In this document: positions 55 through 29,821 of the stretch, in pieces
Layout: each line of letters begins with the position of its first letter
Position numbering within the stretch: position 1 is the stretch's first letter
Assembly (NCBI GenBank): GCA_964533645.1
Contig: CAZHMQ010000001.1
Coordinates: 1 to 54,556 of the forward strand
Source: an uncultured Coxiellaceae bacterium
Lineage (GTDB): Bacteria; Pseudomonadota; Gammaproteobacteria; DSM-16500
Length of the DNA: 54,556 bases
Direction: 5' to 3'
The notes under the pieces: generated by a model
The model's database searches: none
Seen by the model: only the letters and a program-made list of their open reading frames with translations
What the model was told of the DNA's origin: nothing
Position numbers and translations under genes: made by a program

Positions 55-145
55 CTTAATTCTGATTCAATACCATCCAAAAACATACTAAAGGCCTTGA
101 AATAAAGGTCTTTTTTATTTATTCTTCGTCCTACCATGTCCAATA

Positions 146-218: not shown

Positions 219-219
219 C

Positions 220-1434
220 ATGCCATTAAAAGACGTAACGATTAAGAATGCCAAGCCTCGCGAGAAGGCTTACAAACTTGCTGATGAAAAAGGTTTGTAC
301 CTTTATATCAAGCCCAATGGCTCAAAAGCTTGGCGCTTGAAATATCGATTCCTTGGCAAAGAGAAAACGCTCTCAATTGGCCTCTACCCTGATGTTGGCC
401 TATCAGATGCTAGAAACGCACGAGACAACGCTAGAAGAAAGCTCGCAGACAAGATTGACCCGGGTTTAGCCAAACAAGTATCTAAACATAGCGCAAAAGA
501 TGCCGCAGAAAACAGCTTCGAAACTATCGCGCGTGAGTGGTATACAAAATTCTCATCAAAATGGTCACCCAGCCATGGAGAGAGAATTTTACGACGATTG
601 GAAAAAGACATTTTTCCTTGGATTGGTAAACGCCCTATCGCAGAAATCACTGCACCAGAATTGCTATCAACTTTACGCCGCATGGAGAGTCGCGGCGCAA
701 TTGAAACAACGCATCGCGCCCACCAAAATTGCGGACAAGTGTTTCGTTACGCCATTGCAACCGGTCGCGCGGAACGCGACCCATCAAACGATTTAAAAGG
801 CGCAATCCCACCCGCGAAGAAAAAACATCATGCATCAATTATTAAACCAAGTGCAATCGGCGAACTCTTGCGCGCCCTCGATGGATATCAAGGGCATTTC
901 ATTACAAAGTGCGCATTACGCTTAGCGCCACTTGTTTTCGTAAGGCCAGGCGAACTACGCCACGCAGAATGGAACGAGTTTAATTTAGCAATTGGTGAAT
1001 GGCGCATACCTGCCGAAAAAATGAAAATGCGTGTTACGCATATTGTTCCCCTATCCACTCAGGCAATTGCAATTATACGAGAACTTAGAGCGTTAACAGG
1101 TGATGGCAAATATTTATTTCCTAGTGTTCGCAGCTCAAAACGTGCGATGTCAGAGAATACAGTTTTAGCAGCATTACGCCGCCTTGGTTACACCAGTAAT
1201 GAAATGACAGGTCATGGCTTTCGCTCCATGGCCAGCACTTTGCTAAATGAACAAGGCTGGACTCCTGATGCGATTGAACGCCAACTCGCTCATGGCGAAC
1301 GCAACACTGTTCGTGCTGCTTATAACTATGCTGAATATTTATCAGAGCGCAAAAAGATGATGCAGCAGTGGGCTGATTATTTGGATGAATTAAAAACTGG
1401 TGGAGAAATCATACAAATACGACAACGCGCTTAG
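220..1434 (+). CDS. Tyrosine recombinase/integrase, P4-like (DUF4102-type N-terminus)
   Basis: The N-terminus [44 protein letters not shown] is typical of P4/CP4-57-type integrases. The catalytic region contains HGFRSMAST (HxxR) and a C-terminal YNYAEY tyrosine. The start was moved to M29 of the listed ORF (ATG at 220). Confidence 0.9.
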
Positions 1435-4400
1435 TTATCTTTTGCAATAATACTCCAGTCACTTGATAGCATTTCAGCCTGCTGCAACACGGTTTGCACG
1501 GCAGCATCTTGCAAATCAGGAGGATAACCGTATTTACGAAGAATTCGTTTCACAAGCACACGCAGTCTCGCTCTAGCAGATTCACGATGCGCCCAATCGA
1601 CCGAAACGTTCTCACGTAAACTCACCAATAATTCATGGGCAATTAATCGAAGTTTATCATCACCCATAACCTCAACAGCGCTTTCATTTTCTGCCAACGC
1701 ATCGTAAAACGCGATTTCTTCGTCAGATAGGCCGGATTCTTCACCACGTTGCCGAGCAGCGCGAATATCTTTGGCTAATTTAATTAATTCCTGCATCACC
1801 TCAGCAGCTGTAATTGCATTCGCATGATAACGAGCCACTGCGTCTTCCAAGCGTTCCGAAAAAGCTTTGGTTTGCACAACATTCGCCTTGCTTCGTGAAC
1901 GAATACCATCATTAAGTAATTTTTTCAGAGCCTCTAAAGCGAGGTTCTTTTTTTCCATCTGCTGTACTTCAGCTAAAAATTCATCAGACAAAATAGAGAT
2001 ATCGGGAGTTTTAATACCGCTAGCCGCTAAAATATCGATGATCTCTGTAGAAACAACAGCTCGACTCACAATTTGCTGAATAGCTAATTCTCTGTCTTGC
2101 TTGGTTATACCCGAGCCATTAGAAATCTTAACTAATGCAGCACGTATCGCTTGGAAAAAGCCAACTTCTTCGCGAATTTTTTTAGCTTCATCAGATGCAG
2201 AAGCCAAAGAAAAAGATTTAGATAATGCTAATACTGCATCTTGATATCTGCGATGCGCATTTCTCTTGCCTTCATCTGTTTTCTCTTTAGTAGAGAGCTT
2301 ATGTTGCATATCAAGAATCCACTCGATTGCTTCAGCCATCATCTTTAAACGCTCTTGTGGGGTTCCTTGCAAAGCTGATTTGTAAGCAAATCCATGAAAC
2401 ATATCGCGAACGATTTCATATTTCTCCAACATCACCGCAATGGCTTTAGCCTCATCAACGCCAGTGTTATCTTGATCACTCTGTGAGTATTGCTGAAGCG
2501 CTGATTTAAGGTTCTGCGCAACACCAATATAATCGACAATTAATCCCGCAGGTTTATCACGGAATACACGGTTTACACGTGCAATCGCTTGCATCAGACC
2601 ATGTCCTTTCATTGGTTTGTCAATATACATAGTGTGCATACTCGGCGCATCAAATCCTGTCAGCCACATGTCACGGACAATTACTAATTTTAATGAGTCT
2701 TTTGCGTCGCGTGCGCGTTTTGCTAAATCATCACGTCGCTTTTTACTTCCAATATGCTGCTGCCATTCTTGAGTATCGCTTGCTGCACCTGTCATCACAA
2801 CTTTTATCATACCTTCATTATCATCTGCGCTATGCCACGCGGGACGCAACTTTATTATTTCATCGTATAACTTCACACAGATGCGACGACTCATGCATAC
2901 GATCATTGCTTTACCATCCAATGCTGAAATGCGATTTTCAAAATGCTCAACAATATCTTTTGCAACCATCGCAAGGCGCTTATCGCTTCCAACCAAAGCT
3001 TCAATCGTTGACCATTTCTTTTTGAATCTCTCTTGCTCTAATTCGGGATCGTCTTCTGTAAGCTCTGCAACCTCAGCATCTATATTGGGTTTTTCATCTT
3101 CATCAAGCTCAATGCGTGCAAGTCGAGATTCATAATAAATCGGCACAGTAGCACCATCTTCCACTGCACGGCTGATATCATAGATATCAATGTAATTGCC
3201 AAACACAGCGGGTGTATTAACATCGTCAGCTTCAATGGGTGTACCTGTAAAACCAATGAAAGAAGCATTCGGCAATGCGTCACGTAAATATTTTGCAAAT
3301 CCATAAGAAATCGCGGCAGTTTTTGCGTCAACTTTGGCACGAAAACCGTATTGACTACGATGTGCTTCGTCTGCAATGACTACGACATTGCGACGATCAG
3401 TTAACATCGGATATTCACTTTCACCTGTTTCAGGAGCAAATTTTTGAATTGTAGTAAAAACCACACCCCCAGATACACGATTCAAAATCTTCTGCAAATC
3501 TTCTCGACTTTCTGCTCGTACTGGAGTTTGTCGAATCAAATCTCGACACATTGAGAATGTCGTAAATAATTGGCCATCCAAATCATTACGATCTGTTAAT
3601 ACAACAAGTGTTGGATTTGCCATTGCAGGATGTTTCACTAATTGCCCCGCATAGAACGCCATCAGTAAACTTTTACCTGATCCTTGAGTGTGCCAAATAA
3701 CACCCGCTCGCTTATCACCTTGTGCTTGTAACTTTACGCTAGGCAAGCCGTAATTTGCTGGATTTTCGCGTACACCTTGCCAAGGGGTAGCGGCACGAAT
3801 CGTTGATTCAATCGCTTTTTGCACAGCGTGAAACTGATGATAGCCTGCAATAATTTTTACTAGACCACTATCTTTTTCACCAAAAACGGTAAAATCTCGG
3901 AATAAATTAAGAAGGCGTCGATGCTCAAAAATACCTTCAATCAAGACTGAAAGCTCAGGTTCACCTTTTGGCGCAACTTTTTTACCATCAGTGGTACGCC
4001 AAGGCATATAGCGCTCAAAGTCAGCAGAGAGCGAGCCAACACGCGCAGTAATACCATCTGAAATCACCAACAAGGCATTGGTGTTGAATAACGGTGAGAT
4101 TTGATTTTTATAAGTCTGAAGCTGATTGAATGCATCAAACACTGTTGCAGCATCACTGCCGGGCGCTTTTAACTCAATAACAGCAAGTGGTAATCCATTC
4201 ACAAATATAACCACATCAGGGCGCCGGTTATTCTGACCGGAAATAACAACAAACTGACTCACCGCTAACCAATCGTTTTGTTCTGGATGTTCAAAATTAA
4301 CAAGAACGACTTTGCCTGCAGCCAGCGTGCCATCTTCAGCATAATATTCAACGTCAACACCTTCAGTAATCAGTTTGTGAATGCGCCGATTTTCTTCGAT

Positions 4401-4646
4401 CACAGAAGGTAACTCAGATTGTGTGATCTTGCGGATAGCATCCTGCTGCGCTTCTACAGGTATGTCTGAATTTAGTCGTGCAACAGCATCTTTAAACCTT
4501 TTTTCAAGTATTACTACATCGTGACTTTCACGCTCAGGCCGGAGACCATCCGGGCCTATAACTTCGTCATTCTCAATGCTGTAGTTAAGAGTTTTGAGCT
4601 GATCCAGCATACTGTTTTCTATATCAGCCTCGGACAAAAAAGCCAT
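1431..4646 (-). CDS. hsdR: Type I restriction enzyme R subunit
   Basis: 1071 aa. It has a Walker A motif ([11 protein letters not shown]), a DEAH box (IADEAHRSQ), helicase C motifs ([17 protein letters not shown]) and a long helical C-terminus. It is the last gene of an hsdM-hsdS-X-hsdR operon. Confidence 0.93.
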
Positions 4647-4648
4647 TG

Positions 4649-5392
4649 TTATTCTGCCTCCACTTCATCAAAATTATTGGTTTGAATAGCCACATCACGC
4701 GCAGCATTTAGCGCTTCAACATATGCCACTCTATCGATTTGATATAAGAATCGACTAGCCTCAACACGCAGTGGAATTAAATCGCCCGTCGGCAACATCA
4801 CGTTAACAGCCAAATTGTTATCATCGTCTACACTAGCTTGCAAAGAAACATGCGCGTCAATGAGTTGATGAAACCGATTAAAGCGTTCATAAGGTTCACG
4901 TGTTCGCACTAAATCTAGCTCAGACTCTAAATAGGCTTGATGAAGAAAAGTCACGATAGCATCAGCAGATAGAACTGCGGCGCGATGATGATAAGTGGTT
5001 AACACTTGAATATATCCATCTTTACCATGACTAAGCGGACCAGCCTCGTTTCGTAACTCACGCAGTGAATTCGCTAACTTGTTATGGTATTTAATAATGT
5101 CAGCAAACTTTCTGTCGCGAATATCGCTTAATTTTAGTAAACGAGTTGCGACAGAAAGCCATTCGGTTATGGGCGCATCTTCACTCTTTGGCTTTACTGG
5201 TGATTCTGAATTATCAAGCTCTTCTATGATTATTCGACATACACATTCCACCAATCCTTTTGCTGCATCGATTGATGCATCGCTCTGACTATTGAGGCTT
5301 TCTTCAAGCGCCTTAAAAGTGTGCTGCAGCATCGTTGCATCACGCCAATAGCCACATGCTTCACGAATACCAGAGCACCAATCCAAACTCAT
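4649..5392 (-). CDS. Abi_C-like (putative HEPN-type) abortive-infection protein embedded in the type I R-M operon
   Basis: 247 aa. The motif [17 protein letters not shown] resembles the remembered RN..g..HG signature of the Abi_C family. Its start overlaps the hsdS stop (ATGA), and its stop lies 2 nt from the hsdR start. Confidence 0.5.
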
Positions 5393-6729
5393 GATGCATC
5401 CCCAATAATTTTTTCAGCATCTTTTACTCGTAATTCCCCAGAAATAAGCTTAGGCAAAAGCAAATCTCTAAGCGATTTAAGTGAATTATTCTCAAGCAAC
5501 TTTGATGAGACCTGGCTCCGAAGTGGGATAGTAACAAGATCAAACTCCCTGATTATCTCTATTGTTGGTAATATTACTTGAAGCTCCCCGAGCTTCACTC
5601 GACTCAACTCGATTTGACCAGTAGAACCTTCACCTAACGCTTCAATTTCAGTCTGTCGACTCAGCACATTCAATCCCAAAAAATTTGAGGTTATAGCAGG
5701 TGATGAGCGCACAATGGTAACGTGTGTATCAACAATGGCTTTTTCAGGTAAATATAATATTTGAGCAACCCGCCCAAGCGTACCCACTCCCGTGGAGTTT
5801 ACTAAAATGTCACCAATCTGCAGCTCACGACCATTGGTTCCCTTCAAACTATCGTCGTGTCTGCGTGACTTTGTAAAATCAACAATACCATTACGAATAC
5901 ATTTCTGATTCAAAACCATTGTGCCGCCTTCTTCTAGATACTTTGGCGGCAAACCACGATTTAAATAACTTGTTATCTCCTTTAGTTTCGAATAACTCCA
6001 GCCTTCAGGCACCTCTCCCACATCACATTTCACTAAATGTTTCGGAAATAAATCATAAAAATGGACTGGCAATCCAGGTAGCGACTGTCCACGTTTCCAG
6101 CGACCATCCATTTTTGCTCGCACAGGATCAAAATCTACAAACCATGATTTAAACAAAGCCCTAGCCATTGTTTCCACGGTCTCGTTGATTTGTTGGTTAA
6201 TTTCTATTTTTTCATCAAGTATGCCAAGAATGTGGGCTATAGCACTTTGTTCAGAAAGAGGCGGCAGTAAAAGGTCAACATTTTCGATGATGCTCCGTTT
6301 AGCGATATTTACTTGAACGCTTCCTGTCGATACTGAGACCAATGAATAAAATCCTGCTGGCGACGATAAGATTTGATACAAAAAGCGCGGATCGATTACA
6401 CGAGTGTCGGGGCGGAGGATCAACAAAGCTTGGCTGATAATACCGATTGGGTCTGTATCACGAATGATAGAAACTCGCCCCAACGTGCCTGAGCAACTAA
6501 TGATTAAATCGTTCGGTTGGACAGTAAATCGTGAAAGTTCTCGGTGTTTATTTTCATCGATAAAAAAGCGAAATTCTCGAGTGCCGTAGATTGCGTGTTG
6601 TTGTTCATAGACGGGGATGCCGCTAGATTGGAGTTCGCCGCGCTTTAATGCAGAGCCGAACGGGCCACGTATATATCCCTTCTGACCTAATACTTCGCCT
6701 AGTTTTACTAATTTCCAATCATTCGGCAT
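5389..6729 (-). CDS. hsdS: Type I restriction enzyme specificity subunit
   Basis: 446 aa with two target-recognition halves separated by conserved helices ([22 protein letters not shown]; [14 protein letters not shown]). It overlaps the hsdM stop. Confidence 0.87.
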
Positions 6730-12128: not shown

Positions 12129-12230
12129 CGACTTCATTTTGATAATTGTTTATTGGAATTTTTCACCAAAAACAATTATAGCTTAAATGCAAAATTACCA
12201 AATGATTTCGGTAAAATTATGGAGGTAAAA

Positions 12231-12842
12231 ATGGGCGGACTAGGTAGCGGGAGACATTGGCATTACAGTACAAAATCGACGGTTAATAAGTACCATTCCA
12301 TCGATGTCAGAAAATGGCACAAAAAAAACTTACTTACCTCCGGCATTTCCTTCAGTACCAAGTGGTTTCGCAACAATGAAGTCACTGGATCGATTCGTGT
12401 GTTAGCTGCTGAAAAATGCCTCATATTAAGCTATCGGTACACACATTCCGAGGAATGGAAAGATATGAATTATCCGATTGATTTGGAATGGACAGCATGC
12501 AAGCTTGGCGGCAAACGGCCATGGTTTCTTTGTCCTGCAAAAAATTGCGGACGGCGTGTGGCTATCTTATATGGCGGGGCGATATTCGCATGCAGACACT
12601 GTTATCAATTGGCTTATCCGAGTCAGCGTGAAAATCTTGATGATCGCGCAACAAGAAAAGCAGAAAAAATACGCGAACGCATGGGCTGGAAGCCAGGTAT
12701 TTTGAACGGTGAAGGCTTCAAGCCAAAAGGAATGCATTGGAAAACCTTCGAACGATTATGCTTTATTCATAATGAAATGGTTAATCTTTCATTGCGAGAA
12801 GCAACATTACGATTCGGAATTAATATGTTTGATTTTTACTAG
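12231..12842 (+). CDS. Hypothetical zinc-ribbon protein
   Basis: CPAKNCGRRVAILYGGAIFACRHCYQLAY gives a CxxC...CxxC ribbon. The start was moved to MGGLGSG (RBS GGAGG). No family was recognised. Confidence 0.5.
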   Translation: MGGLGSGRHWHYSTKSTVNKYHSIDVRKWHKKNLLTSGISFSTKWFRNNEVTGSIRVLAAEKCLILSYRYTHSEEWKDMNYPIDLEWTACKLGGKRPWFLCPAKNCGRRVAILYGGAIFACRHCYQLAYPSQRENLDDRATRKAEKIRERMGWKPGILNGEGFKPKGMHWKTFERLCFIHNEMVNLSLREATLRFGINMFDFY

Positions 12843-12880
12843 AAAAAAGCAAGTCAACTCATTTATCAAGGAGAAGCAAC

Positions 12881-13228
12881 ATGACGACTCCACGCAACAT
12901 GCTTGATCAACACGCAAATGCGATTATTGAAAAATTAATTGAGCGTGCATTAGCAGGTGATCTTACTGCACTTCGCCTTTGTGTAGAACGCATTATTCCG
13001 CGCGCAAAACCAGATAGCGGAATTAATTTTGACCTACCCGAGGGCAGAATAGATTCCGGCGATAATATGCTGCAAATTGCAAACAATATCACTCAAGCTG
13101 TCGCAAAGGGTGAAATGACAATTGATGAAGCTGAAAAATTCACTGACTTTCTCAAACATCAACGCTGGCATATTGATCAAGCCGAGGGTAAAAAGCGAGA
13201 CGAAGAATGGAAACATAAAAGAGGATGA
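12881..13228 (+). CDS. Hypothetical small helical protein
   Basis: 115 aa with RBS AAGGAGA. The N-terminus ...AIIEKLIERALAGDLTALRLCVERIIPR resembles small phage or island proteins. No family was assigned. Confidence 0.5.
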   Translation: MTTPRNMLDQHANAIIEKLIERALAGDLTALRLCVERIIPRAKPDSGINFDLPEGRIDSGDNMLQIANNITQAVAKGEMTIDEAEKFTDFLKHQRWHIDQAEGKKRDEEWKHKRG

Positions 13229-16773: not shown

Positions 16774-19557
16774 TTAACGCTGCTTGACTAATAAAGCCCG
16801 AATAATAGTATCCAAAACTTCATCCAAATATTTCCCAACATCTTCTGCCAAAAACCTCAACACCGTGTAACCATTCTCCTGCAGCAGCGCATCTTTTTTC
16901 CGATCCCGTCGATAAGCATTTGGGTCTGTTAAATGCTGTTTTCCATCGATCTCAATGGCAATGCGCAGAGTAGAACACAACAAATCAATTTCCATATTAC
17001 CTAAACCATTAAAAGAAATTGGGAGCTCGACATTGAGGCGAAACAAGCCTGCTGTTTTGGATAACGTTTCAAGGCGACGATAAAGAAACGCTTCTGTTAC
17101 GCTGCGCGCTCGTTCAACTCCTTCTACTTCGTTCACCAATGAAACTGTCGCTTGTCTAAATAAAGAGGCCAGAGGTTCATCTACTCCATCATAAATAAGC
17201 CTTTTTATAGTTGTTGCGTAATCTGCCTTCCATTTAGGATCAACAGGCAATGGAACACTCGTAGGCCAACCTGAAATGGCATTAGCAGGAAGTAAAATTT
17301 TATAACCGATAGCTTCATAAGCTTTGCAGCGACGATTAAACATGCGCTCTAACATAGGAACAGAAAAATCAGCGTAATCGTATACTTGGACTTCCTTCTT
17401 AAGATCATAAAGGCGATGCAATCGACCTACATATTGCGCAATCGTTCCTTGCCATGAAACAGGCAATGTCAAAAATAATGTATCTAATCGAGCATCATCA
17501 AATCCTTCGCCAATAAATTTGCCTGTCGCAAGTATGACCCGCTCTTCTTGTTCTGGAATATTTGTTAGTTGCATGATTGCTTGATTAAGTTCTCTGGAAC
17601 TCATTCCTCCACGTAACACGATGAGGTTCTTTACCATGCAAGATAATTTTTGAAATAAATTATCTAAATGTTCATTTCTCTCAGTTAAAATAATGGGTGA
17701 GCGACCAACCTGAACCGCTTGAATCACATCAGAGCAAATAAGTTCGTTACGCATTTCATCTTTGATTAATTCATTATACAAATCTTGAAATTGAATTCGT
17801 AAATTTTCATTTCTCGGCTTAATAAATTGAAATGCAGTAGGACGAACTAAAACGGCATGCTCAAAAGGCTGATTTGCCGCTTGCTCTTTTGCATTGACCT
17901 GATAACTCACCGGACCACAGCGCATGGTAATCATTGGATGACGACCATCTTTTCTTTTAAGCGTGGCGGTAAGTCCCGTAATATATTTTGCTTTGGCAAG
18001 TCGAATCAGTTTTTCAAAATTATCAGCAGGTAAATGATGGCATTCATCAACAATCAAATGACCATATTGAGCAATCTGGTCATCCACAACATCCCCTCGC
18101 ACTAAGCTTTGAATCAATGCAACATCACATAATCCCGTTGGCTTTTTACGACCACCGCCAATTCGCCCGATGGCAGTTTTGGGTAAATCTAAAAAAGTTA
18201 ATAATCGTTCTATCCACTGCTCTTGTAATTGTTTGCGATGCACCAAAACTAGAGTGTTAACTTTTCTTTGCGCAATAAGCCAGGCAGCAACCACCGTTTT
18301 TCCAAAAGCAGTTGTTGCAGATAAAACACCTATGTCTGATTTCATCATGGCCTGAACTGCAGTTTCCTGCTCAGGTCGTAAATGACCACAAAAATTCGTA
18401 ATGAGTGGCTCTCCTAAATAAAGCTCATCTTGAATCGTGAATTTGATTTTTAAATCCGAAAATAACTGGCAAATATCATTGAGACAACCCCGCGGTAAAC
18501 CGATGTGATGCGAATAATCATGCGCACATCCAATAACGCGAGGAATTTGATAAACAGGAAGTCGCATCGCCTGTGCTTTGTAAAATTCAGGATTCTGAAA
18601 TGCAGCCAATCGAATTAAACGGTTTCTAAGCGAAGGTGATAAGATATTTTTTTCTATAAAAATTTCGTTTCCTATTACGAGGTCAATTTTTTCAGGTAAA
18701 TCCACGATAGGAGTAACCTGTCGACGCGAAGGAAGCGCTTTCCAGGGAGTTGGATTATCTTCTTCTGTCACTTCGAGTCGTACACCAATCGTCCAACCTT
18801 TTGCTTCAGCGCGCTCAACTATCGCTTCAACTTCAGAACGTGCCAGTTTGCGTAAACTCGATACAAAAGCCCATTGATCTTCGTAAGGAATTAAATTTTC
18901 ATCTAAGAATATACTATTACCAGCTTGGCGTGCTTTTTTCTGTAGTGGAAGAGCAATCAAGTTTCCAAAACCGCCTTTAGGTAAAGTATCTTGATTCGGG
19001 AAAAATCGATCATAAGAATCCAAGCCAACATCAGGTTGCTGCTCCATTGTTTCTGTCAGCAAATAAGAACCTAATTTTCTTGCCAAACCTGCAGGAATAG
19101 CCTCCGTAAAAAACAACCAAACATGCGCTCCTTTGCCTGATCGTGACCGTTCAAGAGCCGCTTGCAAATTCATTTGTTGGCAAGTTTTCAAATAAGCGAC
19201 TGCATCTTTTTGCCATGTGCTTTTATCAAAATCAACCGCGAGAAAAAAGCATGTTTCATCTAAGAACATGGGATAAACACCCATGACAAAATCTTTGCCT
19301 TTATCATCTAATCCCAAAAGATGCCAACGTATTACCTCATCTGTCACCGGCAAGAAACGTCGATACTGGCAGTTGATGCATTTAATTTTTGGTTTTTCGC
19401 AAACACCTCTTACCCACTCATTTGCACAAGCAGGTGCATATCCCGCTTTTTGAGTTTTTTGGTTTTCAAATCGGCGAGGATAGATATCATCTCTTCCACG
19501 AAAAAGTGAACGAAATAATGCGATTTTATCGATAGTAGGTGATTCTTGATTTACCAT
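16774..19557 (-). CDS. Three-domain fusion: archaeo-eukaryotic primase-polymerase (PrimPol) + SF2 DExH helicase + DUF559/Vsr-like endonuclease
   Basis: AEP motifs are LAVDFDKS (DxD), SGKGAHVWLFF and GNLIALPL. The helicase has TAFGKTVVAAW (Walker A), LIVDECHHL, GLTATLKR and QYVGRLHR. The C-terminus IAIEIDGKQHLTDPNAYRRDRKKDALLQENGYTVLRF is DUF559-like. Confidence 0.8.
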   Translation of the reverse strand: MVNQESPTIDKIALFRSLFRGRDDIYPRRFENQKTQKAGYAPACANEWVRGVCEKPKIKCINCQYRRFLPVTDEVIRWHLLGLDDKGKDFVMGVYPMFLDETCFFLAVDFDKSTWQKDAVAYLKTCQQMNLQAALERSRSGKGAHVWLFFTEAIPAGLARKLGSYLLTETMEQQPDVGLDSYDRFFPNQDTLPKGGFGNLIALPLQKKARQAGNSIFLDENLIPYEDQWAFVSSLRKLARSEVEAIVERAEAKGWTIGVRLEVTEEDNPTPWKALPSRRQVTPIVDLPEKIDLVIGNEIFIEKNILSPSLRNRLIRLAAFQNPEFYKAQAMRLPVYQIPRVIGCAHDYSHHIGLPRGCLNDICQLFSDLKIKFTIQDELYLGEPLITNFCGHLRPEQETAVQAMMKSDIGVLSATTAFGKTVVAAWLIAQRKVNTLVLVHRKQLQEQWIERLLTFLDLPKTAIGRIGGGRKKPTGLCDVALIQSLVRGDVVDDQIAQYGHLIVDECHHLPADNFEKLIRLAKAKYITGLTATLKRKDGRHPMITMRCGPVSYQVNAKEQAANQPFEHAVLVRPTAFQFIKPRNENLRIQFQDLYNELIKDEMRNELICSDVIQAVQVGRSPIILTERNEHLDNLFQKLSCMVKNLIVLRGGMSSRELNQAIMQLTNIPEQEERVILATGKFIGEGFDDARLDTLFLTLPVSWQGTIAQYVGRLHRLYDLKKEVQVYDYADFSVPMLERMFNRRCKAYEAIGYKILLPANAISGWPTSVPLPVDPKWKADYATTIKRLIYDGVDEPLASLFRQATVSLVNEVEGVERARSVTEAFLYRRLETLSKTAGLFRLNVELPISFNGLGNMEIDLLCSTLRIAIEIDGKQHLTDPNAYRRDRKKDALLQENGYTVLRFLAEDVGKYLDEVLDTIIRALLVKQR

Positions 19558-19650
19558 GATTCAATTTCCCGTCAATACGGAGTTTCGGAGGGCTGATTTG
19601 AAGTGTTCAGAAAAACCATATTCAACTAATTATTTGTCATCAACCATTTA
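19558..19650. repeat. Copy A of an about 90-bp direct repeat (degenerate att-like junction)
   Basis: TTCAATTTCCCGTCAATACGGAGTTT...AACCATATTCAACTAATTATTTGTCATCAA aligns with 24295-24390 at roughly three quarters identity by eye. Its first bases resemble the tmRNA core TTCAATTCCCGCC. Confidence 0.6.
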
Positions 19651-20307
19651 GTTGATGCTACCATTTAATTTTCTGATCTCATTTATGTTAGAGAACTTTT
19701 CAATAAACAAACCGCGGAGCGTATAAAAAGCAAAAAAATTATCTCTATATGCAATAATATAGCCTGCTTCGGGTTTCGAGTTATTGATTTTAAAAAAAAA
19801 TAAATCAGGATTTTTAAATTTTTTATTGTTTTTTTCTTGAAGTAATATTTTTTCAAATTCATTTTTATGTTTTTTACCCAACTCTTCACCATAATCCGAA
19901 GAAAATACGATAATTTTAAAAAATAAAATCATCACGACTGTAATAAAAATTAGGCATAAAGAAAATAAAAATAAATAAATTTCAGTATTAGGAAAATTCT
20001 TCTTAGAATTATTAATAAAATATCCTGACAAATTATATTTATCTATGATGACTCGAGAAAAAATTAAAATAAATATTATACAGGATGAAATTACAATTGC
20101 ATTTTCAAAAAAATGATAAGAATATAAAATAATAACCTTACCTCCAAAAAATAGAATTGTGTTAAGTCCCTCTTCAAAAATGCCGTGAGGAACGCCAAAA
20201 ACACGGAGATAAGCACTATAATAATTAAGGCCAGCAGCATATAATATTGCAATTATTATCGGAAAAATAATAGTAAGTATATTTATAGCAAAATACTCTT
20301 TCTTCAT
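19648..20307 (-). CDS. Polytopic inner-membrane protein, unknown family
   Basis: 219 aa with at least four hydrophobic helices (INILTIIFPIIIAILYAAGL; ILFFGGKVIILYSYHFF; VISSCIIFILIFSRVI; IYLFLFSLCLIFITVVMILFF). It is extremely AT-rich and lies downstream of the 708-aa gene on the same strand. Confidence 0.6.
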   Translation of the reverse strand: MKKEYFAINILTIIFPIIIAILYAAGLNYYSAYLRVFGVPHGIFEEGLNTILFFGGKVIILYSYHFFENAIVISSCIIFILIFSRVIIDKYNLSGYFINNSKKNFPNTEIYLFLFSLCLIFITVVMILFFKIIVFSSDYGEELGKKHKNEFEKILLQEKNNKKFKNPDLFFFKINNSKPEAGYIIAYRDNFFAFYTLRGLFIEKFSNINEIRKLNGSIN

Positions 20308-20380
20308 AAAACTCTATGCCCCATAAAATTTTGTTAATTGTAGGTAATCTATAGTGTATTAATCATTAAAAATATTAAAT

Positions 20381-22507
20381 TTATTTTGCAACACTAGAAA
20401 TACCGAGCATTATCATTTTTTTCTCAGACCCAGACAGTCTCGTGTTTTTCAGCACTTCATTAAGTTTCGAGTGATAAAACTGTTTTTCCTCGTGTGAAAA
20501 TTCTGACTTTAACTTCCAACCCAAATGAGATAACAAATTTGCCAAAACCAATGTATCGTTTTCGTTACGAATAAAGGTCAAAATAAACTGATCTTTCTCT
20601 TTATCACTGTGCGTCATGGTGGCTGCATACGCACCAAGCCAGTTACATAATGGAATATTCTGTGATTTAGATAAGACCTGAGCATTATCAGAAAGCAGTT
20701 GTTGCTTATTATGCATTAAATGCTGTCTAAGAATATCTCTAACGCTATCATCAATTGATGCAGGAGATATTTCGTTCAATACAAAGCATGTTGTATGACT
20801 AAACAAACTTGTAGCGTCATTCGTTATTAAACTTGGCAATAAAATTCTTTGCTGTTCTTGACTTGAAAATGCCATTCTTAATTTTAGCAATGCACTGTCT
20901 TTACCAGAAAGCAACGATTCCGCATTCATCATATATTTTTTTCCGAATGTTTTTTCAATATCCTGCTGCGCCTGCTTAGGCGGAACAATAGAAGGATACA
21001 GCTGTATAACATATCGCAAAATTTCCTTGTTCTTTGATGTTATTAGCAAATCCTGCATGAAATTTTGTATTTTTATAATATTTGGAATTTCATTATTAGC
21101 TTCCACTAAATCTGCTTGACTGTGGAACTGGATAGAATTAATCATCATGATTAATAGGTGTTGTTGATTTTCTGTATTTTTCTGTGATTGAAAATTCTGA
21201 ATAAACTCTGATGTTAATTCAATGGGTTTCAGTGCATCCAAACAATCGATAAGATAAGTAAATTTATCTGGATTATCTTGATACTTGATAGCTAGCGACC
21301 ACAGTTGATTAAGTTTTACATATCGAGAAATTTGTTCGTCTTTGACAAATCGATACGTGGAATAATCAGCTTGTCTAATATTAAACTTTTGCGCTGCAAA
21401 TACTGAATCTAATTGAACTGACTGAATAAGTAGATTAATGTCCTTGACTGGATGAGAAGCGCCAACACACTTGGCTCCTTCAAAACTGCGACAAGCCACA
21501 AAAAAATCAAACATATCCACTGGCGAAAAAGGAAACATAAAGACCGGAAAAATATGCAAGTTTGCACCCATCAAATAAGCAAAATAAACAAATGAATCGC
21601 AGCGAAATTTTGCCGCTGTTACAGCATTAAGTAACTGCCACTGATGGATAGATTGATTATATATGTATTGTGCACCGTCACTTCCCGGATGCCAGTCCCA
21701 TCCCATTGTATATTCAAAAGGATAAAGATCCTGCAAACTTGCTTTTGTAATTATGTCGCCGCTCTCATCGAAGGTAAGAGTGTTTTTTTCTACCAACCCA
21801 TACTTTTCTCCCCAATAAGGATAACCTGCAATATGTTTAAACTTATCTAGATAATCTACCTGAATACCATCGTGTGGAAAGTCGTCTGATTTTTTAAGAA
21901 CCTCAATAACAAACGAATTAGCAAATGATAATCCCACATGACCAAACACACTAACAACAGGCCATGCCAAATCGCGCGCAACAAGATCTGCATAACAGGA
22001 TTGGTGAGTATCGCATCCGGTTTCTCCTGCTATTGAGCCTTGTGGACAAACATAAGATGGTTCAATTCTAATTGACGTAAAATCAAGATCTTCTCCTTCT
22101 TTATTTTTGCATTCTCTTCTTGCGACCATAGGTACAACAGCACTTGGGTCAGACTTTGTCTTATTCCAGTCTGAATAACTGTCTATCCAACTGGGATAGT
22201 CATATGGCGAATGCTCAGAATCCCTATCTAAACGAATATCGCTCCATTCGCAATACTCATGAATAGGGACACCAGAAAGCAAGTGTTTAGCAACTTCCTC
22301 TACAGACCCTTTTTCCTTATCGTGATAGGTTTTAAAAATTTGTCCACCACATGAATCCAATCCATCATATTCAACAGATGTATACCAGTATCCAGAAAAA
22401 ATTGGCAAAACATGCTCAGCTTTTGCAATTTGTATTTGGCAGAGAAACAGTAGGCATGACGCAATAAACACTCTAGATTTTCTTGAATAATTTTTCAGAT
22501 ATTTCAC
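20381..22507 (-). CDS. Secreted 708-aa protein: N-terminal region with a permuted papain/NlpC-P60-like His..Cys order, plus a long helical C-terminal region
   Basis: The signal peptide is SRVFIASCLLFLCQIQIAKA. FGHVGLSF...VIEVL is followed about 110 aa later by KFRCDSFVYFAYL, which resembles the YiiX/YaeF-type order (HxGI ... CSElVy.aY). No other family was recognised. Confidence 0.6.
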   Translation of the reverse strand: MKYLKNYSRKSRVFIASCLLFLCQIQIAKAEHVLPIFSGYWYTSVEYDGLDSCGGQIFKTYHDKEKGSVEEVAKHLLSGVPIHEYCEWSDIRLDRDSEHSPYDYPSWIDSYSDWNKTKSDPSAVVPMVARRECKNKEGEDLDFTSIRIEPSYVCPQGSIAGETGCDTHQSCYADLVARDLAWPVVSVFGHVGLSFANSFVIEVLKKSDDFPHDGIQVDYLDKFKHIAGYPYWGEKYGLVEKNTLTFDESGDIITKASLQDLYPFEYTMGWDWHPGSDGAQYIYNQSIHQWQLLNAVTAAKFRCDSFVYFAYLMGANLHIFPVFMFPFSPVDMFDFFVACRSFEGAKCVGASHPVKDINLLIQSVQLDSVFAAQKFNIRQADYSTYRFVKDEQISRYVKLNQLWSLAIKYQDNPDKFTYLIDCLDALKPIELTSEFIQNFQSQKNTENQQHLLIMMINSIQFHSQADLVEANNEIPNIIKIQNFMQDLLITSKNKEILRYVIQLYPSIVPPKQAQQDIEKTFGKKYMMNAESLLSGKDSALLKLRMAFSSQEQQRILLPSLITNDATSLFSHTTCFVLNEISPASIDDSVRDILRQHLMHNKQQLLSDNAQVLSKSQNIPLCNWLGAYAATMTHSDKEKDQFILTFIRNENDTLVLANLLSHLGWKLKSEFSHEEKQFYHSKLNEVLKNTRLSGSEKKMIMLGISSVAK

Positions 22508-22585
22508 TTAATAGAACTCCATCAAAATTGTATAATTTTCTGAATCTCTGGTTGATAATACTCAGCCACTTAATTCACTTCCAAA

Positions 22586-22831
22586 TTATTCAAAATGCTT
22601 CGCATCTTGATAATACTCATATACAAAACTATTAATTTCTAACCCCATCATTTTGCACTCTTGGAGAGTATGGCCAGGCTTGCAGAATTGTACTTTCAAA
22701 AAACGAGATATGATGCGTTGCGAAAGCAAGAAAGTGTAATTATACAAGCCTAGCTCATGTTTTACAAAGTAAGCAACGACACGATACAAAGAATAAAAGC
22801 TCAAATAAACCATACCAAGCGTAATTAGCAA
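22586..22831 (-). CDS. Doubtful small ORF upstream of the 708-aa gene
   Basis: 81 aa from the ORF track only. It has no recognisable motif or clear RBS. Confidence 0.2.
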   Translation of the reverse strand: MLITLGMVYLSFYSLYRVVAYFVKHELGLYNYTFLLSQRIISRFLKVQFCKPGHTLQECKMMGLEINSFVYEYYQDAKHFE

Positions 22832-22943
22832 TTATTCTAAATCTTATTTACCAGTCTTCCTTCTTTTTTTTCTGGCGTACTTGTTTTTTAAAATCAATTA
22901 ATATATAAATCACAGCATTTTACAACATAATGGAATACGCACA

Positions 22944-24023
22944 ATGTCGAGTGGAACAAGTGTGAATAGAAAGCCCCAACGTATTGAACTAATCAAACAA
23001 ATTCAAAATGAACGAAATTCATCTTTAATTACTTATCTAACCAGTACTCGGCCCGGCCTTGAAGTGCCCATGAATATTGACATTATTAGATATATATATG
23101 ACCATTTGGAAAAAATTAAAAATGGACACAAGGGTAAAACAAAACCAAAAATTGATCTGCTGATTCATAGCAATGGCGGAGATGGGATTGTTCCCTGGCG
23201 ATTAGTTACTCTTATTAGAGAATATACTGATGACTTTGGTGTTTTAGTGCCTCATCGAGCTTTTAGTGCAGCAACTTTAACTGCTCTTGGTGCAAATGAA
23301 ATCATCATGCACCCGATGGGTATGCTTGGTCCAACTGACCCTTCTGTTAGCAATCAATTTAATCCAGTAAATAATAAATCAGGCCTACATATACCAATTA
23401 GCGTAGAAGATGTAATTGCATATATACAGTTAATAAAAGAAGATGTAGGTATCAACCATGAAGATGAATTAGTCCAGGCATTTAACATATTAGCAAACCA
23501 AATTCATCCCCTTGCTCTAGGCAATGTGAGAAGGTCTATTTCTCAATCTCGAATGATGGCTTCCAAATTATTAAATTTGCACATCTCACCAAAAGAGCAA
23601 CATAAAATAACAGAAATCGCTGATAATTTAACTTCTAAGTTGTTTTATCATGGGCACCCAATTAATAGAAAAGAAGCTCGAGAACAAATTGGCTTAGACA
23701 CGGTAAGAGATGCCCCGCTTGAATTAGAAGCACTAATGTGGAAGCTATACCTTGAATACGAAGATGAGCTGAAATTACTTGCACCTTTCAAACCTGCTGA
23801 ACAATATCAAACAGAAATAACTAAAATACGCGCAGAAAAGAAAGGTAACAATATAAGTAAAACCAATCCAACTACCGCAAAAATTGCCTTTATAGAAAGT
23901 ACTTTCGATACCGATGTAGCAACATTAAGTTACGAATTAGTAGGCAACACTGAACAAAACGGCAAAACAAATGTTATTATGACCACCCTAGAGCAGGGCT
24001 GGCGCAAAGAGACAATGGAGTAA
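22944..24023 (+). CDS. SDH-family Clp-fold serine proteinase
   Basis: IDLLIHSNGGDGIVPWRLVTLIREY...VLVPHRAFSAATLTALGANEIIMHPMGMLGPTDP matches the remembered ClpP/SppA-fold 'serine dehydrogenase proteinase' pattern, with the nucleophile Ser in AFSAAT. Confidence 0.72.
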   Translation: MSSGTSVNRKPQRIELIKQIQNERNSSLITYLTSTRPGLEVPMNIDIIRYIYDHLEKIKNGHKGKTKPKIDLLIHSNGGDGIVPWRLVTLIREYTDDFGVLVPHRAFSAATLTALGANEIIMHPMGMLGPTDPSVSNQFNPVNNKSGLHIPISVEDVIAYIQLIKEDVGINHEDELVQAFNILANQIHPLALGNVRRSISQSRMMASKLLNLHISPKEQHKITEIADNLTSKLFYHGHPINRKEAREQIGLDTVRDAPLELEALMWKLYLEYEDELKLLAPFKPAEQYQTEITKIRAEKKGNNISKTNPTTAKIAFIESTFDTDVATLSYELVGNTEQNGKTNVIMTTLEQGWRKETME

Positions 24024-24047
24024 AATCTGCTATAATGAGTAATATCG

Positions 24048-24260
24048 ATGCAACTTACAGATGGTCATAACATGAAAAATTATGATATTTTTTCAGCGAA
24101 TTCAGTATATTTAAGTCAGCAAGCTGTAGCATCTAATGAATGGGAGCCTAGCAATAGCATACTACCTGAGCGCTTTAACTCAGTATCAGAGCCTCTTATT
24201 GATGAATATTTTGAAATACCCAGCACCCAATCCAGTAACGACTTAGTTACAGAAGATTAA
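24048..24260 (+). CDS. Small acidic protein downstream of the protease (uncertain)
   Basis: 70 aa ORF with an acidic C-terminal half (EPLIDEYFEIPSTQSSNDLVTED). It starts 25 nt after the protease stop. No family was recognised. Confidence 0.3.
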   Translation: MQLTDGHNMKNYDIFSANSVYLSQQAVASNEWEPSNSILPERFNSVSEPLIDEYFEIPSTQSSNDLVTED

Positions 24261-24286
24261 CATTAACTCAATGTGATTTTTAATCA

Positions 24287-24390
24287 GGACGCCGGTTCAA
24301 TTTCCCCGTCAGTACGGAGTTTTTGGGGGCTTAATTGGGGGCTTCTCAGAAAGACCACATTCACTTAATTATTTATTATCAATCAGTTAC
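24287..24390. repeat. Copy B of the about 90-bp repeat, preceded by a decayed tmRNA-core copy
   Basis: GGACGCCGGTTCAATTTCCCC compares with the tmRNA GGACGCGGGTTCAATTCCCGCC. The rest aligns with 19558-19650. Confidence 0.6.
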
Positions 24391-24411
24391 TTAACCAATA
24401 TGATTGACGCC

Positions 24412-24436
24412 GCCCCTTGATATCAAGGGCTTTTTC
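24412..24436 (+). terminator. Intrinsic-terminator-like hairpin with a T-run
   Basis: GCCCCTTGA-TA-TCAAGGGC is followed by TTTTTCGTTT. Confidence 0.5.
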
Positions 24437-24465
24437 GTTTCTAATATGTCCCAAGAAATCCAATA

Positions 24466-24547
24466 GGTACCCCAGACAGCCAGAACTCAAGTGGGGTATT
24501 TTGCTGGGTATGCGGGAAAATTAGAAATGAGATTTTGGAGATACCCC
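24466..24547. promoter_or_regulatory. Second cluster of the (G/A)TACCCC motif family with no integrase gene following
   Basis: GGTACCCC lies at 24466-24473, the inverted copy GGGGTAT at 24493-24499 and GATACCCC at 24540-24547. Its position relative to the tmRNA-like core mirrors that of 146-218. Confidence 0.4.
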
Positions 24548-24664
24548 AGTTCTAGCTTCAGTTGAAACTGATCTTATACAGTACTCATCATCTGTTGGCA
24601 TAGACATGTCAGAAGTTCGGGCAGCAATACAGAATCATTATGAAAAAACCTGAATTGAAGAATA

Positions 24665-24690
24665 CAACCGGTTACATTTGTAACCGGTTG
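24665..24690. other. Perfect 11-bp-stem hairpin CAACCGGTTAC-ATTT-GTAACCGGTTG
   Basis: It was seen directly in the sequence. It follows a short open frame ending at TGA (24649-24651) that looks like a gene remnant. Confidence 0.4.
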
Positions 24691-24846
24691 GCTTATAAGC
24701 CACCATTCTATATTCTAGAATCTGGAATGACTAAATTGTCCATATTTGGCGTTTTGAACTCGTGAAATTTTTGCACTTGTTGACTCTTTGCTTAATTTGC
24801 TTTCAAAAATCAGAGAATTTTGGTTTTCAAAAAATCGGGGTTAAAA

Positions 24847-24862
24847 ATGTCGAATTCGACAT
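24847..24862. promoter_or_regulatory. Perfect 16-bp palindrome ATGTCGAATTCGACAT upstream of the 178-aa ORF
   Basis: The sequence is self-complementary. A related CTCGAATTCGGGGG lies 12 nt downstream. It sits about 90 nt upstream of the GTG start at 24951. Confidence 0.3.
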
Positions 24863-24950
24863 CTTTAATTCCCTCGAATTCGGGGGAATAAACAGGTAGC
24901 ATTAACCGGCGACAATATGTCACCCATTGAAATTAATATGAGATAGAACA

Positions 24951-25487
24951 GTGCCACAATTTCGCCTAACACAAAAATTTGCAACAGACTGCAAAATTAA
25001 ACAATTGCATGAGCCTTTCACCATAACACATCCACTTGATGACTGGTTTATTGACCGAATGATTGTTGATCGCAAGAAAATAGCGATAATCACCCATGCA
25101 AAATCTACCTTCACTTTTTTTATCCCCTACGCTGATGCAGGCAGCGCCAAGGGAATGATCGCTTATTTTAAAAATCAGCTCAAAGAACTGTTTCAGCAAA
25201 ATTCATTACCAGCACTTGCTTTTGAAGTGGAAAAGCTGTTTGCAGAAGAACTCATCTTTGTTAAAACAGTTGATAGAAAAATCCTGGGGCACATGAACGA
25301 CTTTAAACGCTGTGCTGAACCCTACCCAGGTGATCCATTGCCTGTTGATTGGCATGATATCGCAGAGCGCATCAATAACATGCCAACCAAAGGTGGCGAA
25401 CAAGATTGGCTATACCCCGTGGAGCGTTTCAATAACTTACTGGGCGTCAATTTGTCAAAAAGAAAAAGTGAATTTTCTGCATTTTAA
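24951..25487 (+). CDS. Hypothetical protein (178 aa)
   Basis: The long ORF has balanced composition, a GTG start and no clear RBS. No family was recognised. Confidence 0.5.
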   Translation: MPQFRLTQKFATDCKIKQLHEPFTITHPLDDWFIDRMIVDRKKIAIITHAKSTFTFFIPYADAGSAKGMIAYFKNQLKELFQQNSLPALAFEVEKLFAEELIFVKTVDRKILGHMNDFKRCAEPYPGDPLPVDWHDIAERINNMPTKGGEQDWLYPVERFNNLLGVNLSKRKSEFSAF

Positions 25488-25504: not shown

Positions 25505-25520
25505 GGACGCGGGTTCAATT
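25505..25520. repeat. attR core (exact 16-bp copy of the tmRNA T-arm segment)
   Basis: GGACGCGGGTTCAATT is identical to 26-41. Sequence similarity to tmRNA stops immediately after it. Confidence 0.75.
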
Positions 25521-28108: not shown

Positions 28109-29821
28109 ATGCCATTTTCATTCCAACTTGAGGTGCAATTTAGGGAACTTGCAGATGCTGCAATCAAGAGAGTTAAGTTCAAGACTCCAGAAGATATTTT
28201 GCTTTTTTGCCGGGCTGCCGAAAAATTAATTTCTGGGGGTACCGCCAATCATTTACTTATACTTGACACGTTAGAATACGATGAAGACATTCATAACTTA
28301 CAAGAATTAATTGATAAAGGTTATGACACTTACGCAACAGACGACATAGTGAAGATGGTAAATCAAGTTAGTAGTTCGCGATTCCTCGGCAGTAATTATA
28401 TTGATGTTCCAACTTCCACTCCTACAAGAGAGTTATCACATAATAATTCGAACGAAGAAAAACAGAGAGAAATAAAAATTTCTAGAGAAGATAAAATATT
28501 TGAAGCAAAAGCTGAATTTAAAAAAATTATTATTAATCAGCTTAAAAGCAGACTTAATGAACTTTCTTCCATGAATAAAACGCAGCGAAATCAATATATT
28601 GAAAACCAACAAAGTAAACAAAGAGAACCAAAAGAAAATAAACAAATAATGGACGCAGCAGCATCGAGGCCTCGCTCTCTTGAATCACAGACAATCACTG
28701 AAATTGAAGAAGAATGGATGTTTCGAGAAACGCAGCGTTTTTCTAATGAAGCTCCGAATTCCAGCACTGCTAGTTTGTTTTCTAGCATTTTCAATGCGAA
28801 TCAACAATTTTCGCAAGGCAACCAATCAAGTATTTCAAGACGACTAGAACGCGGGATTAGGCAAGTAGAGGAAGCATTGAGAAGAGAAACATCATCGATG
28901 AGTGGTAACAATGAGAGAAGCGATGATGACGATTCTTTGATAGCCGGATTATTTTCTCCAGCAGATTATTTATACAGCTTTCATTTTGCCGATCCTAACC
29001 CTAGATATCCAATTTTTCCCGCTAGAATTCACATGCCAACCTCATCGGAGACCCAATCAGAATCATCGAATCATCCGCCATTAGAAAGAGCATTTGATGG
29101 TTTGTCAGATGATGAGCGGCTAGAGCGCGCAATTAATGCAGCAGAACAAATGTCCAGTATCGCGCCATCATTAACAATGGAGACTGGAACTGAAGGATGG
29201 GAAGGAAGAGCATCGAATCTGAATCCACCCTCTTCGCAGCTTCGAGAGCTACCTGACCTTGATTATGCTGCTACTGCGCTTCTGATAATTGTCATCGCAG
29301 GACTAATACTTCATTCACCAGAATCACAAGCCAGACTGGCAATTTTTGAAAATCTAGTTGTAAATAATCTGCCGCCTGAACTTAAAGATACCCCACTGTC
29401 AGCTGAAGACTATTTTTACTGGCATGATTTTCTGCCAAATTATTTAAATTTTGTAACCCACTCTGCATTTGCATTACGAGAACGATTACCACTTCAACAC
29501 CAACAACTTGAACATAATCGTTTTTTTCGTCTTTCTACGCCAACACCTTTGTTAATGTTTTCAAACAATCCATCACAACAAAGAAAATTAAATGCCTGGG
29601 AAGAACATGCCTTATTAAGTTATCAGGCAAGAGGTTTAACAGAGGCTATGCTACGTGATGCAAACAGTTATAAAGAAAAATTTACGCTTAATCATTATCT
29701 AGCTTTTGATCGTTTGGTTAGCGATGATGTACCGATTAATGATGCATTGCAAAGAGTTTCGCAGCTATCGCCTCATGAAGCTCGTAGTGCTCTTAATGAA
29801 TCCCCGAGACCAGGCCGCTGA
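28109..29821 (+). CDS. Large hypothetical protein, low-complexity and coiled-coil rich (effector-like)
   Basis: 570 aa with RBS GAGGAT. It has Ser/Asn/Gln/Glu-rich stretches (NNSNEEKQREIKISRE...; SSMSGNNERSDDDDS). No conserved catalytic motif was recognised. Confidence 0.6.
   Translation: MPFSFQLEVQFRELADAAIKRVKFKTPEDILLFCRAAEKLISGGTANHLLILDTLEYDEDIHNLQELIDKGYDTYATDDIVKMVNQVSSSRFLGSNYIDVPTSTPTRELSHNNSNEEKQREIKISREDKIFEAKAEFKKIIINQLKSRLNELSSMNKTQRNQYIENQQSKQREPKENKQIMDAAASRPRSLESQTITEIEEEWMFRETQRFSNEAPNSSTASLFSSIFNANQQFSQGNQSSISRRLERGIRQVEEALRRETSSMSGNNERSDDDDSLIAGLFSPADYLYSFHFADPNPRYPIFPARIHMPTSSETQSESSNHPPLERAFDGLSDDERLERAINAAEQMSSIAPSLTMETGTEGWEGRASNLNPPSSQLRELPDLDYAATALLIIVIAGLILHSPESQARLAIFENLVVNNLPPELKDTPLSAEDYFYWHDFLPNYLNFVTHSAFALRERLPLQHQQLEHNRFFRLSTPTPLLMFSNNPSQQRKLNAWEEHALLSYQARGLTEAMLRDANSYKEKFTLNHYLAFDRLVSDDVPINDALQRVSQLSPHEARSALNESPRPGR

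Follow-up and report, generated by a model that had tools for sequence, protein, structure and literature searches.

Direct repeats around an integrase-less gene segment of an uncultured Coxiellaceae bacterium are probable attachment-site arms of tmRNA-targeting genomic islands

Cis-mobilizable elements (CIMEs), known from the ICESt1/CIME work in Streptococcus, have functional att sites on both sides and no integrase. They are also mentioned in a study on Dehalococcoides, in which islands stand in tandem at ssrA, the gene for tmRNA, with direct repeats of ssrA, and in which some members of the array lack an integrase (PMC3146451). According to the logic of Islander, such an integration leaves a restored target together with a displaced fragment of it (PMC4383910). 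Here we describe a new example of this already known type of structure, located at the start of a 54,556-nucleotide stretch of DNA (the window: positions 1 to 54,556 of contig CAZHMQ010000001.1, assembly GCA_964533645.1) from an uncultured Coxiellaceae bacterium. Our subject is the segment at 19,558 to 24,390, here called the cassette, which lies between two direct repeats, A and B, and which a first-pass annotation had likened to a toxin/immunity or conflict module carried as a recombination cassette. In order, the array consists of a tmRNA end, an island with integrase, restriction-modification (R-M) and TOTE genes, repeat A, the cassette, repeat B and an integrase-less remnant (Table 1). 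We consider it highly probable that islands of a P4-type integrase stand in tandem at the 3' end of tmRNA, and that A and B are copies of the P arm found at the right end of such islands.

Like the ssrA islands of Dehalococcoides, the islands described here lie downstream of a single tmRNA gene, stand in tandem, are bounded by repeats of the ssrA 3' end and carry strain-specific cargo; moreover, some segments here are likewise without an integration module. The differences lie in the machinery, since the Dehalococcoides islands use the serine recombinase DsiB and repeat 20 bp of ssrA, whereas the integrase found here is a P4-type tyrosine integrase and the repeated unit is a conserved P arm of ~135 bp. 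Furthermore, the core in our case is 7 bp long and lies in the 3' strand of the acceptor, and the segments are 1.5-9 kb in size, with defence- or effector-like cargo.

The first-pass annotation had noticed direct repeats of about 90 bp, identical at roughly three quarters of their positions, on either side of the segment, and these were readily recovered. They align in direct orientation as two blocks, 19565-19615 with 24302-24352 (73% identity) and 19607-19653 with 24346-24392 (81%), which together form a single repeat of ~95 nt with one 2-nt indel and an overall identity of ~78%. Two 18-mers diagnostic of A and B are confined to these two places in the window, at chance expectations of 0.03 and 0.29. 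So what exactly are A and B? A multi-copy repetitive extragenic palindrome (REP) or miniature inverted-repeat transposable element (MITE) was dismissed, as a BLAST search of A against the whole genome gave no further copy. A tRNA or other RNA gene was likewise set aside, with ARAGORN and Rfam returning nothing at either repeat and no covariation being seen.

An 18-mer common to A and B was scanned for in public genome and metagenome collections, and among its hits, which include chance ones, were metagenome-assembled genomes (MAGs) of Gammaproteobacteria and Coxiellaceae whose flanks align to B over ~135 nt. A and B are copies of a conserved element of this length, which we name E. An exact-pattern scan of the family matched A only, owing to the indel in B, and a profile search was needed; with a profile (R1) built from seven copies, E was found in 46 of the 86 genomes, and in 13 of the 21 genera, of the family to which the window belongs. 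In cmsearch, with a model of the element built without A, A scores 53 bits (E 5e-15) and B 133 bits. Wherever E and ssrA share a contig (in genomes G042, G054, G039, G058, G053, G063 and also G098), E has the orientation of ssrA and is located 1.3-25 kb downstream of it. Many contigs hold two to four direct copies at a spacing of 1.5-9 kb, with four in G042, and the best-scoring copy is the one most distal to ssrA in G042, in G053 and in the window. The repeats are not particular to the cassette, but represent the common P-arm/att junction of a family of islands that target ssrA.

E is made up of a 16-mer resembling the tmRNA T-arm, two TTGGGGGC repeats, an AT-rich stretch and the 7-bp core CGCCGCC; the TTGGGGGC repeats are probably arm-type integrase sites. 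As a whole, the element resembles the tmRNA 3' end, GGAC.C.GGTTCAATTCC ... CGCCGCC(T)CCACCA, with an arm of ~105 nt inserted, and in all copies of E this arm splits the tmRNA-like sequence exactly between ...TTCAATTCC (TTCC) and CGCCGCC. All parts are present in B, which opens with GGACGCcGGTTCAATT, identical to the tmRNA T-arm at 15 of 16 positions (24289-24304), continues with two TTGGGGGC arm motifs and the AT-rich arm, and closes with the tmRNA acceptor-like core. The DNA to the right of B aligns to window positions 45-190, that is, to the tmRNA tail, the terminator and the GATACCCC repeats upstream of the integrase gene. A has only degraded forms of the two GGGGGC arm motifs, and CGCCGCC is absent from it. 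The exact core is kept in 22 of the 31 E copies of the fetched arrays, A being among the few without it.

What E represents becomes apparent when sequences are compared across the core. A table of 11 cored junctions from six genomes, including that of the window, was aligned on CGCCGCC (one junction has the variant TGCCGCC). To the left of the core stands either the body of tmRNA (...GGGTTCAATTCC) or E (...CAGTTACTTAACCAATATGATTGA, the P arm), and to the right either a P' arm (terminator, GATACCCC cluster and integrase) or unrelated DNA. The core joins tmRNA to P' in the window, G054 and G053, and it joins E to P' and an integrase in G030 (locus L055) and G050 (locus L087); at B it joins E to a decayed P' that no integrase follows. 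Distal copies in G053 (with TGCCGCC), G098, G042 and G054 join E to other DNA, and some distal copies end in CGCCGCCCCACCAAATT, the displaced terminus of tmRNA. Across these genomes, all four arm combinations (B-O-P', P-O-B', P-O-P' and B-O-other) are found around one core. The P' that follows E in L055 is nearly identical to that of the window, and so is the 5' end of its integrase gene (window 60-240), which is interrupted further on; a related P' follows E in L087, where the integrase is 85% identical to that of the window, and tmRNA in G054 and G053.

In the window itself, the tmRNA piece carries the T-arm 16-mer GGACGCGGGTTCAATT at 26-41 and the core at 44-50, and together with 58-219 it constitutes attL (B-O-P'). 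The integrase gene (136-1434) lies beside the 3' end of its target RNA gene (1-57), and a direct repeat of the target 3' end recurs at the far end, as CGCCGCC at 24408-24414 and as CGCCGCCCCACCAAATT in relatives. This heptamer belongs to the 3' strand of the acceptor stem of tmRNA. The T-arm 16-mer was considered as the crossover core and ruled out: arm identity switches at CGCCGCC in every cored junction compared, and the heptamer is therefore preferred. E is the P arm plus the core of the attP/attR of this integrase family. The integrase presumably acts at CGCCGCC, and the GGGGGC repeats would be its arm sites.

The position of E also allows for a different explanation, in which it would not be a recombination site but would act either as a small RNA with a defined structure or as the regulatory leader of the gene to its left. 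A directly adjoins the start codon of the TOTE gene, E lies ~90-130 nt upstream of a gene for ~185 aa in the copies that were read directly, and its sequence is strongly conserved. However, the genes to the left of E vary (TOTE, the SDH protease with its 70-aa companion, or a ~185/~238-aa pair), RNAalifold finds 14 pairs with a covariation term of only -0.22 and a single compensatory change, and E matches no Rfam family and has no conserved hairpin. Moreover, the junction logic around CGCCGCC accounts for the conservation, and we regard an RNA or leader instead of an att site as highly improbable. A promoter role and an att role of E are mutually compatible.

In the model that we propose for the att reading, integration would yield an attL of the form tmRNA-core-P'-integrase proximally and an attR of the form E-core-flank distally, and successive integrations, in a presumed historical order, would result in tandem arrays with E-core-P' junctions between the islands. 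A would then be a fossil junction that has lost its core, and B an intact one. The cassette would be an integrase-less islet that could move, if at all, only with the upstream island, through recombination of attL with B (~24.4 kb). Because A is dead, and both B and attL have the core, attL and B are the only integrase-competent pair around the cassette. The first-pass annotation had proposed looking for recombination between A and B, which is not expected from the integrase because A has no crossover core. Our read evidence consists of the assembled contigs of two soil runs, in which rare variants are dropped; no joint of A and B, either from deletion or from a circle, occurs in these contigs, from which rare products cannot be excluded. 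Positions 18500-24333 are unbroken in them, and at the start of the window the reads are mixed with the tmRNA ends of many organisms, at a depth above 800. A 1615-nt contig of a sister soil sample (run X2) matches window 22960-24416, containing the SDH gene, the 70-aa open reading frame (ORF) and B, and then continues for 158 nt into unrelated sequence. Position 24416, with which CGCCGCCCC ends, is the last at which it agrees with the window, so that the two part right after the core; no place for this alternative flank was found in the bin.

We must however take into account several observations that do not sit easily with a tandem array at ssrA. The window, which is contig C1 of a 2.2-Mb MAG of 178 contigs, starts inside a tmRNA copy, and the full ssrA, together with smpB, is on a separate contig, C22. 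We therefore only infer the physical link between the array and the functional ssrA; the bin also has 7% contamination. A simple P-arm model does not account for the T-arm-like sequence at the left end of E. Furthermore, the T-arm 16-mer recurs at 25505-25520, where it precedes DNA that is not tmRNA, and this does not fit a simple attR, there being no remainder of the tmRNA 3' end; it is probably a truncated att-derived scar. No excision product, whether a circle junction or an empty site, was found in the contigs of the two soil runs, and the E-core-P'-integrase junctions could in principle stem from circular forms assembled into contigs instead of from tandem junctions.

Two other contigs of the same genome bear on the tandem arrangement. 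On C22 (region 3113-5551), the full tmRNA (4611-5012, minus strand) lies beside smpB, and next comes a large serine recombinase of 520 aa. The ORF of this recombinase is on the opposite strand and terminates within the 3' end of tmRNA; this contig holds a different type of island at ssrA. Bases 1-20 of the window differ from the tmRNA of C22 at a few positions, and the window would probably sit distal to the C22 island in one long array. C16 carries a second tandem array (7980-29729), at tRNA-Ser. It starts with tRNA-Ser, an integrase 63% identical to that of the window, cargo, and a paralog of the SDH protease (66%) with a homolog of its small ORF; then follow an arm with the 3' end of tRNA-Ser at its close, an integrase (75%) that is truncated, a set of backbone genes that are 79-86% identical to those at 12153-13228 of the window, and a second arm with core (29635-29729). 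The C16 arm has GGGGC repeats and an AT-rich stretch, can be aligned with E and has as its core CACCCTCTCCGCCA, the 3' end of tRNA-Ser. The arms at tRNA-Ser have no T-arm-like left end. The arms being homologous and the core being that of tRNA-Ser, it follows that the arm travels with the integrase family, while the core follows the target. Homologs of the integrase with 63-85% identity sit directly after tmRNA, E or tRNA-Ser elsewhere.

As to its contents, the cassette holds the genes that the first-pass annotation had listed, namely those for a 219-aa and a 708-aa protein on the minus strand and those for the SDH protease and a 70-aa protein on the plus strand. A possible 81-aa ORF is indeed present as well, and is probably not a gene, having a TTG start and no match to a Pfam, NCBIfam or PADLOC family. 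That the cassette would be extremely AT-rich is an overstatement: at 34.0% GC it does lie below the genome (37.8%), which puts it in the 8th percentile among 4.8-kb windows. This low value is due to the 219-aa gene (24.4% GC), the 708-aa and SDH genes having 36-36.5%, and the contrast with the R-M/primase part arises mainly because that part, at 42.7%, is richer in GC than the genome. Separate acquisition, which had been suggested from this contrast, remains plausible within the array. The segment is bounded by repeats derived from recombination sites.

Could the four genes work together as a single conflict module, moving by recombination between A and B? Direct repeats do flank them, their neighbours are defence genes (R-M, TOTE, Fic and PDC-S63), the SDH protease and its small ORF are a genuinely conserved pair, and pieces from a freshwater run, ~90-95% identical, span the boundary between the 219- and 708-aa genes. 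However, homologs of the 708-aa protein stand alone in five other contexts (G001, G027 and three metagenome contigs), never beside a 219-aa homolog, so that the conserved adjacency expected of a toxin and its immunity protein is not seen. No 708-aa gene is detectable next to the sole homolog of the 219-aa protein, in G070, where only ~360 bases are left to the end of the contig, and the SDH pair occurs without either of the other two genes. Within the family, the SDH subfamily is limited to this genome, where it is found twice and each time beside an island P arm, plus one distant match. Adding that A is coreless, that the contigs hold no A-B joint and that PADLOC has no match for the 219-, 708-, 81-, 359- or 70-aa proteins, we give such a module very little credence. 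All four genes co-occur nowhere else. Because the 708-aa gene stands alone, the 219-aa gene is a near-orphan and the SDH pair lacks the other two elsewhere, the four-gene set is not a unit; only the protease and its small ORF are. The first-pass annotation had itself named two outcomes that would speak against a module, genes that never co-occur elsewhere and a region that is the end of a larger island, and these largely describe what was found. On our reading, an ordinary tandem array of islands includes the cassette as a stretch that has no integrase and whose cargo genes are unrelated to one another.

A comparison with CIMEs and integrons raises the question whether segments bounded by E can be mobilised singly, at ssrA or tRNA-Ser, if P4-type integrases supplied in trans were to recombine whichever two copies of E have a core. 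Like a CIME, the cassette is an integrase-less segment between att-type repeats beside an island that has an integrase, and it could potentially be moved along with it. Unlike in a CIME, its left repeat A is coreless with degraded GGGGGC motifs, and only co-excision through attL and B is conceivable. The resemblance to integron cassettes lies in small, promoter-poor modules arrayed beside an integrase and separated by a repeated recombination site. Here, however, the integrase is P4-type and not IntI, E does not have the imperfect inverted-repeat structure of attC, and the site derives from the 3' end of tmRNA or tRNA. In favour of exchange, E bounds small segments of 1.5-9 kb in many arrays, most of these segments have no integrase, and most internal copies of E keep the exact core. 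Moreover, the ~185/~238-aa pair abuts E in at least 15 genomes among the loci fetched, the 219-aa gene abuts it in two genera, and the SDH pair abuts arms of two different att specificities within one genome. However, neither a circular cassette nor a shuffled order came to light, accretion followed by loss of integrases gives the same pattern equally well, and with a coreless A this cassette cannot be excised on its own. We therefore think single-segment exchange rather unlikely. Similarly doubtful is the most far-reaching version, in which ssrA, and tRNA-Ser via a sister integrase, would be an integron-like platform where single modules, each closed by a P arm of ~135 bp with an intact core, are excised, reordered or captured so that defence and effector-like genes are shuffled, and the SDH/PSILPDRF pair an undescribed two-gene conflict module.

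Table 1. Positions of the features of the array and its surroundings in the window.
Feature	Position	Strand	Evidence or remarks
3' end of tmRNA (ssrA) copy	1-57	+	Rfam RF00023, 49 bits, model positions 316-374
P' arm: terminator hairpin (~93-116), then GATACCCC/GGGGGTA arm-type repeat cluster upstream of integrase	58-219	+	
P4-type tyrosine integrase	136-1434	+	Pfam Arm-DNA-bind_3, Phage_int_M, Phage_integrase
First-island cargo: type I R-M with Abi gene, primase-like 688 aa, two small backbone genes, RecB/Cas4-RNaseH-like 477 aa, Fic, TOTE-type AEP-helicase-DUF559 927 aa	1431-19557		Pfam, PADLOC
Repeat A, decayed and truncated E copy (model positions 11-111)	19557-19654	+	cmsearch; dead junction
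219-aa membrane protein, near-orphan	19648-20307	-	24.4% GC; one homolog
708-aa protein	20381-22507	-	25 homologs
81-aa ORF, TTG start	22586-22831	-	inside 436-bp divergent intergenic region
SDH-type ClpP-fold serine protease, 359 aa	22944-24023	+	PF01972, 69.4 bits (cut-off 31.3), residues 11-138
70-aa acidic ORF, protease partner	24048-24260	+	motif NEW...PSILP(D/E)RF(N/S)S(V/T)SxP
Repeat B, intact E copy, P-O-P' junction	24285-24423	+	cmsearch 133 bits; junction table
Remnant P' arm of third, integrase-less segment	24414-24560	+	local alignment to window 45-190; terminator scan
DUF6933 protein, third-segment cargo	24951-25487	+	Pfam PF22016; PADLOC PDLC05056 (candidate PDC-S63), E 6.5e-28
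Exact copy of T-arm 16-mer GGACGCGGGTTCAATT	25505-25520	+	sole match of at least 12 nt to window 1-75 elsewhere in window

At the left end of the array, the true start of the integrase is probably the ATG at 220 and not the called start at 136. From 136 onwards the ORF overlaps the cluster of GATACCCC arm sites, its Arm-DNA-binding domain begins only at residue 31, and the ATG of the copy in L055 aligns with the ATG at 220. To the right of B, the third segment spans 24414-25487 and lacks an integrase, of which tblastn found no remnant there; its remnant P' arm starts with a terminator (24414-24429), followed by GGTACCCC/GGGGTAT/GATACCCC repeats.

The conserved pair deserves a closer look. The protease belongs to SDH_protease (PF01972) in that its N-terminal ~130 residues score above the Pfam threshold, and it also matches phrog_11747. 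It differs from the SDH-type proteases of PF01972 and NF047768 in its score, 76 bits where the NF047768 equivalog cut-off is 250, in its C-terminal extension of ~200 aa and in its obligate small partner downstream. More than 2700 homologs were found across phyla, at ~55-66% identity. An ORF of 62-78 aa with the same motif as the 70-aa partner follows the protease on C16, in a Verrucomicrobia contig and in a Nitrospira contig, which confirms the first-pass suggestion of a protease with a small partner and extends it across phyla. The papers searched have only incidental mentions of the function of the SDH family/PF01972, and as far as they show, a small partner with the PSILPDRF motif is not described.

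The 708-aa protein has 25 homologs among 5.8 billion proteins. In the five contexts given above, the neighbours are a TPR-methyltransferase, an RCC1-like protein, a TrwC relaxase with a PLD nuclease, or RhuM and Bro-N genes. An N-terminal hydrophobic leader resembles a signal peptide; the N-domain that follows is Cys-rich and beta, with an invariant His190 (GHVGL) and Cys303 (FRCDSF), and the C-terminus is a HEAT/ARM-like alpha-solenoid in the AlphaFold2 model (pLDDT 82 over the full length; the N-domain model has 92). The protein has no sequence match in the PDB and none in Pfam at E up to 10, CHAP reaching E 0.095 in one of 21 members. With the whole model, Foldseek returns only generic HEAT/ARM solenoids, and with the N-domain no significant match in the PDB; the best hint, a weak one, is the LRAT-like HRASLS2 (4dpz, E 0.5, 63 columns). 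The N-domain might possibly be a papain-like hydrolase with His before Cys, of the permuted NlpC/P60 or LRAT/YiiX-like kind. The 219-aa protein, which appears polytopic from its hydrophobic stretches, as judged without a topology program, has a single homolog among the same 5.8 billion proteins (46% identity, in G070) and no family match in Pfam, PADLOC, NCBIfam or PHROG. That homolog lies directly to the right of an E copy and on the opposite strand to it, as in the window, so that the E-p219 junctions are homologous. The idea that the 219-aa protein is a fragment of the genes beside 708-aa homologs was dropped, as no similarity was found.

The repeats provide the exact island boundaries, together with the core CGCCGCC and the P arm used by an integrase family. 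In roughly one half of the genomes sampled from a family of intracellular bacteria, these integrases shape the variable region next to tmRNA. This can be of use for annotating defence and effector cargo in uncultured genomes, and offers a candidate integrase/att pair for genetic tools. Of more modest interest for follow-up are the protease and small-peptide pair, which occurs across phyla and has no known role, and the family of Cys/His proteins, predicted to be exported, whose N-domain lacks a structural match.

In the wider set of loci, some observations were made along the way. Synteny was looked for in genomes of the same genus, and the tmRNA flank of G055 is unrelated. In G053, a complete chromosome (OZ257148.1), only an 89-residue remnant of an integrase directly follows tmRNA (L080:12028-12294), and the island carries Fic, AbiEii, DUF5677, IS21 and metallophosphatase genes with E at its end; it is an integrase-less defence islet. 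The ~185/~238-aa gene pair beside E (among others at L053:5781-7041, L052:2899-4168 and L121:7283-8621, and at C100:164-1382 in the genome of the window itself) has no Pfam match, and these islands may have in it a conserved module of their right end. In the copies that were read directly, the pair reads away from the left end of E, with a palindromic TTCGCGAATCGCGAA-like motif between gene and E. In G053 and G070, the pair is followed by a 267-aa gene, which in G053 matches a metallophosphatase family.

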